From an uncultured Verrucomicrobiae bacterium (GTDB lineage Bacteria; Verrucomicrobiota; Verrucomicrobiia; Chthoniobacterales; Xiphinematobacteraceae), in NCBI GenBank assembly GCA_963706715.1, contig CAVPNI010000003.1:905878-969877 (forward strand): DNA of 64,000 bases, in the 5' to 3' direction. Shown here piece by piece: positions 9,730 through 13,847 of the stretch. The position numbers and the translations under genes are program-made. The notes under the pieces are model-generated. The model ran no database searches. It saw only the letters and a program-made list of their open reading frames with translations, and had not been told where the DNA came from. Numbering within the stretch: the stretch's first letter is position 1; each line of letters starts with the position of its first letter.

Positions 9730-11760
9730 CTATTTTTTCGGACACACAATTGTTTTTTTGAGGGTTAAAGCTGCTAAATCATCCGGCCGCAAGTTAAGTG
9801 ATTGATCTAACAAAGCGTCTCCCTTTTTAGGATTTCCACTCGCGATCTTTTGCCGAGCCCGCTCAAAAAAGTCCCTTGCCTGTAAAAGGTGGTCTTCCAC
9901 TTCGCCACGCTTTCCCATTAATTCAAAAATTTCCACAGAATGATCGAAAAAGAATTTCTCTCCTAAGGCTCTCCACTCAAAGCTCTTTTTCGTAGCCAAT
10001 CGGATTTCACCACTAGCCAAACAATGAGTCCCAAATTGTTTGTTCATTTGTTCCAGCCGAGCAGCAATGACCACAGGTTCTCCCGCCGCACTAAAAGAGA
10101 AACGATTTTTGGTGCCAAAATTGCCTACTAAAGCAGTTCCGGAAGCTAATCCGATACGCGCTTTCAAAAGGGGCAATCCTACTTTGAGTCGTTTTTTGGA
10201 AACTTCCTGCAGCTTCTGAATCACTGAAAGGGCTGCTAAGCAAGCGCTCATGGCATGATCTGCTTGTTCATCCAAAGTGTTAAAAAGGGCAAGTATGCCG
10301 TCCCCGAGTAACTTATCCACCATTCCACCAAATTCTATTTCCACGGTCGGAATCACTAATTCGAAATATTCATCCAGTTGCTGGACCAACTGATTTGCCG
10401 GCAAATTTTCAGCCATACCTGTAAATCCCTCCAAATCGGACACAAAAACGGAGATCTCCTTCGGGACAGCTTCGAGATGCGCTTCCTGATTTTCTCTTAG
10501 GAGTTTACGGACCACATAATCCGGCACGTAACGCGCAAATGACTGGATGCCTTGTTTCATATGCTGCGTGGCGTTGACGAGTGCTTGTACTTCATACAAC
10601 GGAGAAGAAGAGATGAGTGCCGGCTCAATTTTAAATTGAGCGACCCGTTCGAGATCCTGACTGATTTGAGAAAGAGGGCGGGCAAGTTTCGTGCTCAGTA
10701 TCGTAGCAATCACAATCGCTATCAGCAGAGCCCCTGTCCCTACTTCCATGGCGAAGATGATGTTCTTTTTAGCGACATCAAGGAAATCAGATTCTCTCAC
10801 TACCAGTCCGACACGACACTCGACTTGCCCATTCAGTAAGAATTCAGTCAGTGCAGACACGTATTCCACTCCTTTCCATTTAAAAGACCGGACTGATACT
10901 TCTTGGGCGGGCCCTTGCAACTGCGGCAAATTTTCCGACATGCAGTACTCCCGCAGATCACGAGTCAAGGACAGCTCCAAGGTTGAACTCTGAGTGATGG
11001 GAACATCCTGCATGACCAGAAAAAGGAGACGGTGTTGTTTGGGGAGTAGGGTTGCCAGGGCATGCTGAATGGCTTGGAGCGAAAAGTCAGCGGACAGTAC
11101 TCCAATGAGCCGAAAATTCTGTCCAAATATAGCGGTCACTGCGGAAATTCCGTATTGGCTTCCAAAAAATTTGTATGGCCGGAGCCAGATCACATTGCCC
11201 CATGCCCGCAAACCGGGCTGATACCAAGGGCGTTCACGGGGATCAAAAAATTCTGATTCGGACAATTCCGGTGGGCCAAAACTGCCATCCGGAAAAACTT
11301 GCCTTTCCACCTGGTGTCCAGGTGCGAGGTTGGAGTTCATAAATTTTACGACCAAGCGTCCATCCGGTGTCCGCGCAGCTCCCACGTAGTGTCCCGTCTC
11401 GCCGAGTGCCATACCGAGGCCGGTCAAACAAACTGGAGAGCGGAGACGCTCCGCAAAGATGGAACCGATTTGTACAACATCAGTCGTCGATATCAGGCCC
11501 CTTTGAAATAAGCTCTGAAACTCCCGGACTATAGACGCATTCGGATGAAGGAGCTGACGGATGTCGTTAGCAACTCCAGCGACCGCCACCTGATAATGGT
11601 CTTTTTCGATGACTCGAAGAGCGCTCTTCGAACGAAAATATGCTATCGATACAATTAGCCCAATTGTAATCACCAAGGTTGCCAAGGTTAAGAGAATTAG
11701 CACCCATACAAATCCGATATGCTGAACTTTCGCCTGCCTGGCGGATGATTTCGTACTCAT
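9730..11760 (-). CDS. Membrane class III adenylate/guanylate cyclase (TM-Cache-TM-HAMP-cyclase); retains metal-binding Asp pair, lacks Asn
   Basis: FDPRERPWY Cache motif; FVSDLEGFT, DKLLGDG, GEPVVIAARLE. Confidence 0.88.
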   Translation of the reverse strand: MSTKSSARQAKVQHIGFVWVLILLTLATLVITIGLIVSIAYFRSKSALRVIEKDHYQVAVAGVANDIRQLLHPNASIVREFQSLFQRGLISTTDVVQIGSIFAERLRSPVCLTGLGMALGETGHYVGAARTPDGRLVVKFMNSNLAPGHQVERQVFPDGSFGPPELSESEFFDPRERPWYQPGLRAWGNVIWLRPYKFFGSQYGISAVTAIFGQNFRLIGVLSADFSLQAIQHALATLLPKQHRLLFLVMQDVPITQSSTLELSLTRDLREYCMSENLPQLQGPAQEVSVRSFKWKGVEYVSALTEFLLNGQVECRVGLVVRESDFLDVAKKNIIFAMEVGTGALLIAIVIATILSTKLARPLSQISQDLERVAQFKIEPALISSSPLYEVQALVNATQHMKQGIQSFARYVPDYVVRKLLRENQEAHLEAVPKEISVFVSDLEGFTGMAENLPANQLVQQLDEYFELVIPTVEIEFGGMVDKLLGDGILALFNTLDEQADHAMSACLAALSVIQKLQEVSKKRLKVGLPLLKARIGLASGTALVGNFGTKNRFSFSAAGEPVVIAARLEQMNKQFGTHCLASGEIRLATKKSFEWRALGEKFFFDHSVEIFELMGKRGEVEDHLLQARDFFERARQKIASGNPKKGDALLDQSLNLRPDDLAALTLKKTIVCPKK

Positions 11761-13847
11761 AATCGTGTCTTGAGTTCAGCCAGGTACCACGTGGTCAGAC
11801 AATCACCCGGACGTAATGCCAAAGCATCCAAGAACCGAGTTTGCGCTTTTATCCAATTTTTGTTTTTCCATTCCGTGAGCCCTTGTTCAAACTGGTTTCT
11901 TGCCTGGAGAAGATCTACAGGTACGGCGTCTTTTTCTCCCAGTAATTCCCAAACAGAAACTTGACCGGAGCGTCCTGTTACCTGCTGGGCCCCCAGGAAA
12001 CGCCATTCAAACGGGGCGGAAATCTGGGAATGAGCTTCCTCACCTACTAAGATGCAAAGATCAAGCGAGAAGGCTAACTCCATCAGTCTATGAGCAAGAT
12101 TGACGGCGTCCCCCATCGCTGTATAGGCAAAGCGGTGCTTAGTGCCGATATTTCCAACCAGTGCGGTGCCTGTGTTGATGCCAAATCGGATTTGATGGTG
12201 GTCGGAGATTTCTACACCTTTCAGCGCACGTTTCCATTCATCACACCAACGCAAAGCAACCACACAGGCTGCATCCGCATGGTTCAGGACAGGACGAGGC
12301 TCATTAAAAAGAGCCATCATTCCGCCTCCTCCGAAATATTTGTCAACCGAACCCTCCATCTCAACCAGTTCGGTGCCAATCGTGAAGTATTCTTGCAATA
12401 GCCGGAGGGATTCCGGGATATTTTCGTCGGACCGCCTCATTTCTAATTCGGAAAACAAGATAGTAATGAAGTATTCTTTTCCTTCTCGGCTGGCGTCACG
12501 GTGGGTGGCGATTAATTCGCGTACGACACCAACGGGCACGTACCGCCCGAAAGATCGCAGTGCCCGTTTGAGTCGCTCGACTGCATCCGAGACTACAGCC
12601 GTTTCTCGGACGTGAGAATGCGGTGAAGGGGCCTCCGGAATGTCAAAGGCGGCTACATGTTCCAGATCAGTACTGAGTTTCCGGAGCGGACGCGCAAGCC
12701 AATTGCTCACCCATATTGAGAGGCCTGCCGCTATTAAAAGTGCACAAAGCCCGAAGGCGATTGTGGAGCGGAGATTCGCCTTGGCAAGTTTGAGGAATTG
12801 TTCTTCCGGAATCACCTGCGCCACCGTGCACCGCAATCCCCCTTGTAAATCAATTTCAGCCCATGCAAGCTCAAAAGGGCTTCCATTAAATGTCATCGAA
12901 GTCATCCGAAATTCTCTTTTAGGACCGGTACGCCGAGTGCGATCCATAATCCGTATTGCAGCATCGCGAAGAGAATTTTCGGAAATATGCGAAATCGTGG
13001 TATGTTGTGTTAAGACCCAATTATTGTCGCCGAGTATTACAAATAGCAAACGATCGTGCCATGGCTGGAGATACGAAAGCTGTTCCTTTAATTTGTCCGC
13101 CGAAGAATGCACCATAAAAATCCCCTTCGGGCGTTTTTTATTTTCGGCGCGTCCCAGATTTTTTTCTTTCTCCTTCTTTCCCTCTAAGGATTCCTCTTTG
13201 TCAAAAATCAAAACCCCCACACCCAAACAATAAATAGAGCGCCCAAAATTCGGAAACGGTCTCGTCCAGACTAACCTGCCATCACCCTTCATGATATCCT
13301 GAAACCATGGACGGATTCGAGGATCGTAAGGTTTTTTCCAGTATGGATCATCAGCAGGGGTAAGCTTCCCCGCAGGGGAGACAATATCGCTGGTTTGCTT
13401 TGCCAGAATCCCTGACAATGCGCGCCGGATCACAATCTTCCCCGGGAATAACATTCCATTCGCACAAACATAGTCTCCCTCTGGCAAGGTCGTGTAACAA
13501 ATCTCATCCACGTCGTCTTCTTGGCGCAGCCGTTCAGCAAGAATAAAAGCCAGTTTCCGCATATCGTCCTGAGGGATGAATTCTTTGGAGAGAAGAACCT
13601 GAAACTCTCGGGTGATCAGAAGAACGGACTCAAAAATCCGGCTGGTTTGGTTTCGTACCTCTGAAATTGCTAGGAAATAGTATTGGGTGTTGAGCTCCGA
13701 TATTGCATCCCGAGACGATCGATATCCTACAATGGCAATGATTCCAACAGTGGTGAGGAGCGTACCAAGCACAAGCGTAAGGATGAGGGCACCCATTTTT
13801 ACCACTTTGGGAAATAGCGGGATAAAACGTAAGGGGGATCCGCTCAC
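11757..13847 (-). CDS. Membrane class III adenylate/guanylate cyclase paralogue; lacks Asp pair, retains K/T/N/R
   Basis: YDPRIRPWF; LFSELEM, DKYFGGGG, YTAMGDAVNLAHRL; ATGA overlap with the downstream paralogue. Confidence 0.88.
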   Translation of the reverse strand: MSGSPLRFIPLFPKVVKMGALILTLVLGTLLTTVGIIAIVGYRSSRDAISELNTQYYFLAISEVRNQTSRIFESVLLITREFQVLLSKEFIPQDDMRKLAFILAERLRQEDDVDEICYTTLPEGDYVCANGMLFPGKIVIRRALSGILAKQTSDIVSPAGKLTPADDPYWKKPYDPRIRPWFQDIMKGDGRLVWTRPFPNFGRSIYCLGVGVLIFDKEESLEGKKEKEKNLGRAENKKRPKGIFMVHSSADKLKEQLSYLQPWHDRLLFVILGDNNWVLTQHTTISHISENSLRDAAIRIMDRTRRTGPKREFRMTSMTFNGSPFELAWAEIDLQGGLRCTVAQVIPEEQFLKLAKANLRSTIAFGLCALLIAAGLSIWVSNWLARPLRKLSTDLEHVAAFDIPEAPSPHSHVRETAVVSDAVERLKRALRSFGRYVPVGVVRELIATHRDASREGKEYFITILFSELEMRRSDENIPESLRLLQEYFTIGTELVEMEGSVDKYFGGGGMMALFNEPRPVLNHADAACVVALRWCDEWKRALKGVEISDHHQIRFGINTGTALVGNIGTKHRFAYTAMGDAVNLAHRLMELAFSLDLCILVGEEAHSQISAPFEWRFLGAQQVTGRSGQVSVWELLGEKDAVPVDLLQARNQFEQGLTEWKNKNWIKAQTRFLDALALRPGDCLTTWYLAELKTRL

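Follow-up and report, generated by a model that had tools for sequence, protein, structure and literature searches.

Introduction

Class III nucleotide cyclases are head-to-tail dimers in which one subunit provides two Asp residues to the active site and the other provides Lys, Thr or Asp, Asn, Arg and a loop Lys or Arg. Those of bacteria are described as monomers that must homodimerise (PMC4821796, PMC9552081), and heterodimeric catalytic cores are reported as known from higher eukaryotes (PMC8815786). A literature search, with most subscription journals outside its scope, found no natural two-gene class III heterodimer in bacteria. In the present work, we describe two overlapping cyclase genes, the products of which are here termed CycU (upstream) and CycD (downstream), in a stretch of 64,000 nucleotides (the window) from the 3.04-Mb, four-contig genome (G000) of an uncultured Verrucomicrobiae bacterium (GenBank assembly GCA_963706715.1, contig CAVPNI010000003.1, positions 905,878 to 969,877). 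Each product carries a periplasmic dCache sensor and the two cyclase domains lack complementary sets of catalytic residues. We consider it likely, with a probability of roughly 0.7, that CycU and CycD form a dCache-linked adenylate cyclase, a heterodimer whose single active site is composed of residues from both subunits. A two-gene heterodimer had been proposed in a preliminary description of this locus, and conserved complementarity, canonical relatives, co-inheritance, gene overlap, selection and a pairing model agree with that proposal, the pairing itself being read from the model.

The mammalian transmembrane adenylate cyclases (tmACs; domains C1/C2, PDB 1CJU/1AZS) are described as enzymes in which each monomer lacks residues that its partner supplies (PMC2576301). 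CycU and CycD resemble them in comprising two diverged class III domains between which, as predicted here, a single active site is formed, its pseudo-symmetric counterpart having no catalytic function; CycD would correspond to C1 as the Asp donor and CycU to C2, which contributes Lys, Thr/Asp, Asn, Arg and Lys/Arg, and the best mammalian PDB matches of CycD are C1 chains (1cjk_A and 1azs_A). They differ from tmACs in that the halves are separate genes and polypeptides, each bearing a two-transmembrane (2-TM) dCache sensor of its own where tmACs have a 6-TM bundle, and in being of the Thr type (class IIIb) and the products of a seemingly recent duplication inside one verrucomicrobial lineage. 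Soluble guanylate cyclase (sGC) alpha/beta offers a second parallel, viz. two separate homologous polypeptides with a sensor on each and a heterodimeric catalytic unit. Heme is reported to be bound by only one (beta) of its two homologous sensor domains (PMC2576301), and the dCache sensors described below offer a parallel in that one of the two has lost residues of a ligand motif. In contrast to CycU and CycD, which are bacterial, predicted to be membrane-bound, equipped with dCache sensors and endowed with a Lys/Thr pair that predicts ATP, sGC is eukaryotic and soluble, carries H-NOX, PAS and coiled-coil regions, and makes cGMP.

The logic of complementary loss is known experimentally from Rv1625c of Mycobacterium tuberculosis, whose D300A and R376A variants are reported to be inactive individually and to complement each other in a dimer (PMC4821796, citing Guo et al. 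2001). In both cases a metal Asp is missing from one subunit and a transition-state residue from the other; the Rv1625c variants were made in the laboratory by single substitutions in one homodimeric enzyme, whereas the losses of CycU and CycD occur in nature, are several in number and have become fixed in the two genes. Heterodimers of Rv1625c with two different receptor anchors are said to be active and no longer regulated by ligand (PMC4821796). The chytrid RGC1/2 and NeoR proteins are likewise two sensor-cyclase polypeptides with different sensors; they are described as forming heterodimers only, with one sensor triggering and the other modulating (PMC8815786), but they are eukaryotic light sensors making cGMP. 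Their heterodimerisation is not explained by complementary catalytic loss, because RGC1 and RGC2 are reported to keep all catalytic residues (PMC8815786). CycU and CycD would most likely be a natural two-gene equivalent of the Rv1625c mutant complementation and, among bacteria, a counterpart to C1/C2 and sGC alpha/beta. The gcyB and gcyC genes of Rhodospirillum centenum were considered as a bacterial multi-gene precedent and rejected; they are called non-catalytic subunits or hypothetical proteins in one source (PMC4681086) and are named as guanylate cyclase genes, without detail, in another (PMC10187061), and neither source presents a complementary cyclase-domain pair.

Complementary loss of catalytic residues

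Both proteins score above the gathering cut-off of 21.9 bits for the class III cyclase family PF00211 (Table 1) and match the solved class III cyclase 6fht (E 2.3e-21 for CycD and 3.7e-12 for CycU). Their catalytic residues were assigned by alignment to solved class III cyclases and to relatives, and each codon was checked; residue numbers of CycU count from a GTG at 13847. CycD retains both metal-binding Asp residues, D442 (SDLEGFT) and D487 (GDG), together with K483 and R568, and has S557 at the Thr/Asp position and V564 in place of Asn (VVIAAR). Its loop EKFFFDHS (residues 601-608) is without the G-[KR] motif and is two residues shorter than that of CycU and the outgroups, the residue aligned at the motif being H607 (MAFFT) or F605 (phmmer). 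In CycU, E467 replaces the first metal Asp, next to a one-residue deletion in the GFT loop (SELE-MRR), and G508 replaces the second (GGGG), while K503, T576, N583, R587 and G625-R626 (VTGR) are all retained. As regards the ability to form a homodimeric site, CycD has the Asp pair and CycU does not, whereas CycU has Lys, Thr/Asp, Asn and Arg and CycD, with V564 and no Asn, does not. The preliminary description had listed the losses and retentions of the upstream gene correctly; for the downstream gene its retained Asp pair and its missing Asn and VKGK-like motif are borne out, with the correction that Lys and Arg are also retained.

Because these residue sets complement each other head-to-tail, a CycU-CycD dimer would possess one complete site, hereafter site A (the CycD Asp pair with Lys, Thr, Asn, Arg and loop Arg of CycU), and one dead site, site B, made up of the reciprocal set. 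Such complementary two-domain sets, one complete and one degenerate, characterise heterodimeric class III cyclases, and they are found in CycU and CycD. The individual changes differ in weight. The Thr to Ser change in CycD is conservative, Ser also occurring in 2 of 37 otherwise canonical homologues, and the G-[KR] motif is the least diagnostic position, being absent from 5 of these 37.

A Lys and Thr pair in class III enzymes goes with ATP as the substrate. Since both residues are present, ATP is the predicted substrate of the pair and its product would be cAMP. Class IIIb was reportedly defined by Linder and Schultz in 2003 by a Thr instead of Asp at the second substrate-specifying position, and Thr accompanied by Lys places the family in this class, the Thr being present in 4/4 CycU orthologues and in 34/37 other family members.

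Conservation of the complementary pattern

A search of 5.8 billion clustered proteins identified exactly three close orthologues of CycU (74, 63 and 57% identity) and exactly three of CycD (83, 65 and 62%), the next matches standing at 32% in each case. The orthologues pair up on the same contigs, P0003 and P0024 being the pair of a sister genome (G001). Across the resulting four pairs the seven residues of site A are kept without exception (28 of 28 cells), 20 of these cells being the Lys, Thr, Asn, Arg and Gly-Arg of CycU, and all seven positions of site B are altered in at least one lineage. The first Asp position of CycU reads E/E/E/G and the second G/G/G/S; the Asn position of CycD reads V/V/V/T, its Thr position is Ser in three of four, and its G-[KR] motif is gone from all four, with H/R/H/Q at the aligned residue. 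The later losses of CycD, viz. Lys to Gln in P0024 and Arg to Gln in P0025, are confined to site B, as is predicted by relaxed constraint on an unused site. The preliminary description had proposed examining whether the complementary pattern holds in orthologous pairs, and it does so in four of four.

In an alignment of 45 members of the family, the eight proteins of these four pairs are the only ones without a metal Asp or without the Asn. The other 37 homologues all possess both Asp residues, Asn and Arg, and most of them also Lys (33), Thr (34, with Ser in 2) and the loop Lys/Arg (32). The single-gene dCache-linked class III cyclases of Verrucomicrobiota and Planctomycetota (P0026; G023, L027:5404-7482) share the architecture of CycU and CycD at ~32% identity and lie nearest to them in the tree; they differ in keeping all seven catalytic residues and in adjoining unrelated genes, and are presumably homodimers. 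In the nearest of these (G023 and G006) the adjoining genes do not encode cyclases, and the PF00211 scores are 71.8 and 68.1 bits, compared with 39.9 for CycD and 30.8 for CycU.

Gene overlap, common origin and selection

CycU and CycD are 31% identical over 663 columns (E 4e-80). The sequence ATGA contains both the CycU stop (TGA) and the CycD start (ATG), which suggests that the two genes may be translationally coupled. The same 4-base overlap occurs in the sister genome (2218..4263 and 4260..6275) and in the metagenome contig L042, and is hence kept in 3/3 lineages for which DNA was examined. Same-architecture paralogues overlapping by ATGA, as originally noted, are confirmed by the open reading frames (ORFs), by PF00211 and by this level of identity. 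The CycD gene encodes 676 aa identical to the database protein P0022. The CycU gene had been placed at 11757-13847, and an ORF is indeed present there on the minus strand (696 aa if read from GTG at 13847), although its start is probably the ATG at 13796, which is used by the database protein P0001 and by the CycU orthologues (679 aa).

A phylogenetic tree of 21 rows was constructed with IQ-TREE under the site-heterogeneous model LG+C20 with posterior mean site frequencies (PMSF). The CycU and CycD groups are sister clades in this tree (ultrafast bootstrap 100; Shimodaira-Hasegawa-like approximate likelihood ratio test, SH-aLRT, 98), borne on long stems of 1.29 and 1.05 changes per column, and both have the identical internal order (d,(c,(window,b))), with which a quick tree of 37 rows agrees. 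We read these relationships as the outcome of a duplication in tandem within this lineage, after which both copies diverged fast and were then inherited together.

The adjacent pair is present in only two of 41 related genomes (G000 and G001). Two members of the same genus (G003 and G004), each a single contig of ~0.9 Mb that is 99% complete, have no match to the cyclases; set against the 3.04 Mb of the window genome, they point to strong genome reduction within the genus. In a sample of 401 genomes of the phylum, which does not include G001, 86 contain a match to the CycU profile at E <= 1e-30 and only G000 contains an adjacent pair among the best candidates (at most three per genome), a weak negative result. 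Locus searches with four-row alignments returned one locus each, namely L042 and a contig of G001 (L025).

Between the window and G001 the synonymous sites are saturated, with a proportion of synonymous differences (pS) of ~0.7, and the proportion of nonsynonymous differences (pN) in the cyclase domain is 0.12 for CycD and 0.15 for CycU. In neither protein is any other part as well conserved as the cyclase domain (78% aa identity in CycD and 73% in CycU), and both domains are under purifying selection. With pN far below pS and the domain better conserved than the rest of the protein, the Asp-less domain of CycU is being maintained rather than decaying.

Structural model of the CycU-CycD pair

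The cytoplasmic parts (CycD 357-676 and CycU 365-679, the latter in the numbering of P0001) were modelled as a complex, each with a 15-row alignment. The complex scored 0.63, and none of its three controls rose above 0.00; for comparison, 116 out of 157 complexes of solved structure attain that mark, as do 2 out of 215 mismatched pairs. The runs agreed in at least 97% of contacts, with a predicted local distance difference test (pLDDT) of at least 83 for the partners, and in the model the partners are in contact along the linker helices, in the segment preceding the cyclase domain and at the catalytic cores. The model, of a kind proposed in the preliminary description, supports a putative pairing of CycU with CycD, but its score may derive from likeness to solved class III dimers and not from a mutual preference of CycU and CycD.

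Sensor domains and signal input

CycU and CycD each consist of an N-terminal transmembrane helix, a periplasmic region of ~300 residues, a second transmembrane helix (TM2), a linker of two helices and the cyclase domain, followed by a tail of ~55 residues that in one relative matches TPR profiles. The periplasmic regions of the window proteins score 20.9 and 23.4 bits against dCache_1 (PF02743), below its cut-off of 45, and 14 of 15 family members match it at E <= 0.01. A family profile matches solved dCache domains, including those of PctA and PctC and a proline-binding dCache, with E values from 1.8e-19 to 3e-16. AlphaFold2 models of the sensors of CycU (pLDDT 87.9; predicted template modelling score, pTM, 0.84) and CycD (pLDDT 87.6, pTM 0.82) have dCache domains as their best Foldseek matches (E ~1e-9, to chemoreceptor domains, and ~1e-10, respectively), with TM scores of 0.55-0.76 to dCache chemoreceptor domains. 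The two sensors are 28% identical to each other, and the earlier suggestion of two different Cache sensors is upheld by this divergence and by the predicted fold.

The dCache_1AA amino-acid sensors are described as sharing a motif (AA_motif) corresponding to Y121, R126, W128, Y144 and D173 of PctA, in which D173A and D173N abolish binding and R126A weakens it 61-fold (PMC8915833). We transferred these positions to the family through an alignment to PctA. The CycD sensor of the window has F, R, W, Y and D (4/5) and the CycU sensor Y, R, W, F and H (3/5), His standing at the D173 position; in G001 it is CycD (L, S, W, Y and N) that has lost both Arg and Asp, and CycU keeps the Asp. All five residues are present in some outgroups, e.g., P0026, and in neither window sensor, and the family looks to have been derived from sensors of the amino-acid type. 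The preliminary description had raised the possibility of an AND gate. Because one sensor of the two has lost key motif residues in each of these genomes, a strict two-ligand AND gate is argued against and appears somewhat doubtful; the residues would better suit a receptor in which one sensor binds a ligand and the other is auxiliary.

Two further observations concern the sensors. The distal dCache module of CycU contains a Lys/Glu-rich insertion of ~20 residues (about 13131-13193, minus strand) that is absent from CycD and from 3/3 CycU orthologues; confidence in the model is lowest here (pLDDT 55-69), and the insertion directly precedes the strand in which the motif Asp is replaced by His. 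The Foldseek matches of the sensor models also include PDB 9a65 and 9a69, integrative models of mixed dCache chemoreceptor pairs (YvaQ-McpB and McpB-McpC), a hint that dCache receptors may pair heterologously elsewhere.

Proposed mechanism and alternative explanations

We propose that CycU and CycD arose when a class IIIb adenylate cyclase with a dCache sensor was duplicated in tandem within this lineage; the two proteins would be translationally coupled and would work as a membrane heterodimer. In its one complete site, D442 and D487 of CycD would bind metal, and CycU would supply the adenine-specifying K503 and T576, the transition-state residues N583 and R587, and the loop residue R626. The pseudo-symmetric site (E467 and G508 of CycU with K483, S557, V564 and R568 of CycD) would be catalytically dead and drifting. 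A periplasmic ligand, possibly amino-acid-like, would act through TM2 and the two-helix linker on the single site. CycU alone is predicted to be dead and CycD alone to be at best weakly active.

Several points weigh against this proposal. The conservation of the pattern is known from four pairs in one narrow lineage and hence reflects few independent events. Long-branch attraction between the two stems could have affected the tree despite the site-heterogeneous model, and any two class III domains might score well in complex modelling. A CycD homodimer would keep Asp, Asp, Lys, Ser and Arg and be short of only the Asn and the G-[KR] loop, so that residual activity is possible; Asn is also missing from some active mycobacterial cyclases. 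The heterodimer may be strictly obligate, as first suggested, or CycD may be weakly active by itself. As for the type of linker, none of 15 family members has a Pfam HAMP match (PF00672) between TM2 and the output domain at E <= 0.01; the complex model has two paired helical segments here (CycD 359-376 and 390-408), according to which the linker is HAMP-like in position only.

A more far-reaching interpretation would make the pair an independently evolved bacterial counterpart of C1/C2 with asymmetric integration of two inputs, in which one dCache triggers and the other gates or tunes, and the dead site serves as an allosteric pocket (cf. the forskolin site of tmACs and the nucleotide site of sGC). 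This interpretation is tentative and, on balance, unlikely.

The main rival to a heterodimer with a composite site is that CycD is a weakly active homodimeric enzyme and CycU a dead paralogue, a regulatory pseudo-enzyme that forms a heterodimer with CycD, or contacts it in another way, only to tune or inhibit it. The residues retained by CycD (both Asp, Lys, Ser and Arg), the dispensability of the G-[KR] loop in 5/37 homologues and the lower PF00211 score of CycU (30.8 bits) are in keeping with such an arrangement. We nevertheless regard it as unlikely, for the catalytic residues that CycU has kept in every cell would be useless in a dead subunit unless they complete the Asp pair of CycD, and a self-sufficient CycD homodimer should not tolerate the loss of Asn in 4/4 lineages and of Lys or Arg in single ones.

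It is also conceivable that CycU and CycD are independent homodimeric receptors of relaxed or altered function (non-catalytic signalling or another product) that are adjacent merely through tandem duplication. Tandem paralogues are common and each protein has its own diverged dCache sensor, but no CycU orthologue has a metal Asp and its cyclase domain is nonetheless under purifying selection, the losses are exactly reciprocal, and the 4-base overlap and identical tree topologies amount to strict co-inheritance; we judge this very improbable. That both are pseudo-cyclases, inactive in any combination and signalling by protein-protein contacts, would suit their low PF00211 scores relative to relatives and the fact that this genome carries a further cyclase-homology gene (the third), which is thoroughly degenerate, but loss of catalysis does not predict seven invariant site A residues in four pairs, and we give this the least credence of all.

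If the heterodimeric adenylate cyclase is real, duplication followed by reciprocal degeneration of two symmetric sites, the same route as is proposed for the origin of C1/C2, arose independently in bacteria. The system would be young and tractable, with four orthologous pairs and canonical single-gene relatives at ~32% identity standing in for the ancestor. In addition, it would exemplify a heteromeric dCache receptor in nature and would bear on the way in which one output site is driven by an asymmetric pair of sensors. Should asymmetric two-input integration hold as well, it would represent a compact receptor whose evolution from a homodimer is traceable against living single-gene relatives.

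Features of the locus and related genes in the genome

The coordinates of the features discussed above are summarised in Table 1.

Table 1. Features of the CycU-CycD locus, with positions in the window
Feature	Position	Strand	Basis
CycU: TM helix, dCache, TM helix, linker of two helices, class III cyclase domain (degenerate), TPR-like short tail	11757..13796	-	ORF; starts of P0001 and orthologues; PF00211, 30.8 bits
CycD: same architecture as CycU	9730..11760	-	ORF; equals P0022; PF00211, 39.9 bits
ATGA overlap (CycU stop, CycD start)	11757..11760	-	Sequence; also in G001 and L042
CycD cyclase domain	9916..10461	-	D442 10435-10437; D487 10300-10302; K483 10312-10314; S557 10090-10092; V564 10069-10071; R568 10057-10059
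CycD loop EKFFFDHS without G-[KR]	9937..9960	-	Alignments
CycU cyclase domain	11928..12485	-	E467 12447-12449; G508 12324-12326; K503 12339-12341; T576 12120-12122; N583 12099-12101; R587 12087-12089; G625-R626 11970-11975
CycU periplasmic dCache sensor, 317 aa	12768..13718	-	AlphaFold2, Foldseek, sensor alignment
CycD periplasmic dCache sensor, 293 aa	10756..11634	-	AlphaFold2, Foldseek, family profile

The neighbouring genes are unrelated to the cyclases, viz. a convergent copper-type P-type ATPase (7494..9713) on one side and a divergent YacP-like NYN protein followed by an M23 peptidase (13897..15205) on the other, and CycU and CycD are therefore taken to form a two-gene operon. Consensus scans of the region 9500-14200 found seven promoter-like sites (4.7 +/- 1.8 expected) and eight terminator-like sites (5.7 +/- 2.3 expected), neither number being above chance.

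The window genome contains four cyclase-homology genes and a single detectable gene for a cyclic nucleotide (cNMP)-binding protein (L029:1357-1881, on contig C3), which is located ~21 kb before the window and encodes a stand-alone domain of 174 aa. This protein has no DNA-binding domain by Pfam and its gene lies just upstream of a 434-aa ORF resembling an LpxC-FabZ fusion; it is a candidate cAMP receptor.

The third cyclase-homology gene (L003; G000:C1:758691-762230, with the match at C1:760026-760823, minus strand) is a 485-aa open frame with a multi-TM N-terminus; by eye, it has no Asp at the first metal position and is also without the Lys and the Asn. ORFs of ~420-435 aa matching this region are present in many genomes of the order, and the type may represent a widespread pseudo-cyclase.

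Two other genes of the window were also noted. A 545-aa ORF at 15631-17268 (plus strand) lies in the stretch of lowest GC content (38.5% at 16001-18000, against ~47% elsewhere) and may be an acquired gene; it matches no Pfam family above threshold, its sole match, to RP853, being weak (17.9 bits against a cut-off of 25). At 6483-6998 (plus strand), a 171-aa protein of the CCDC90-like/DUF1640 type (46.2 bits) contains three near-identical tandem repeats of 21 residues (LVTKDYL...AELKAD).

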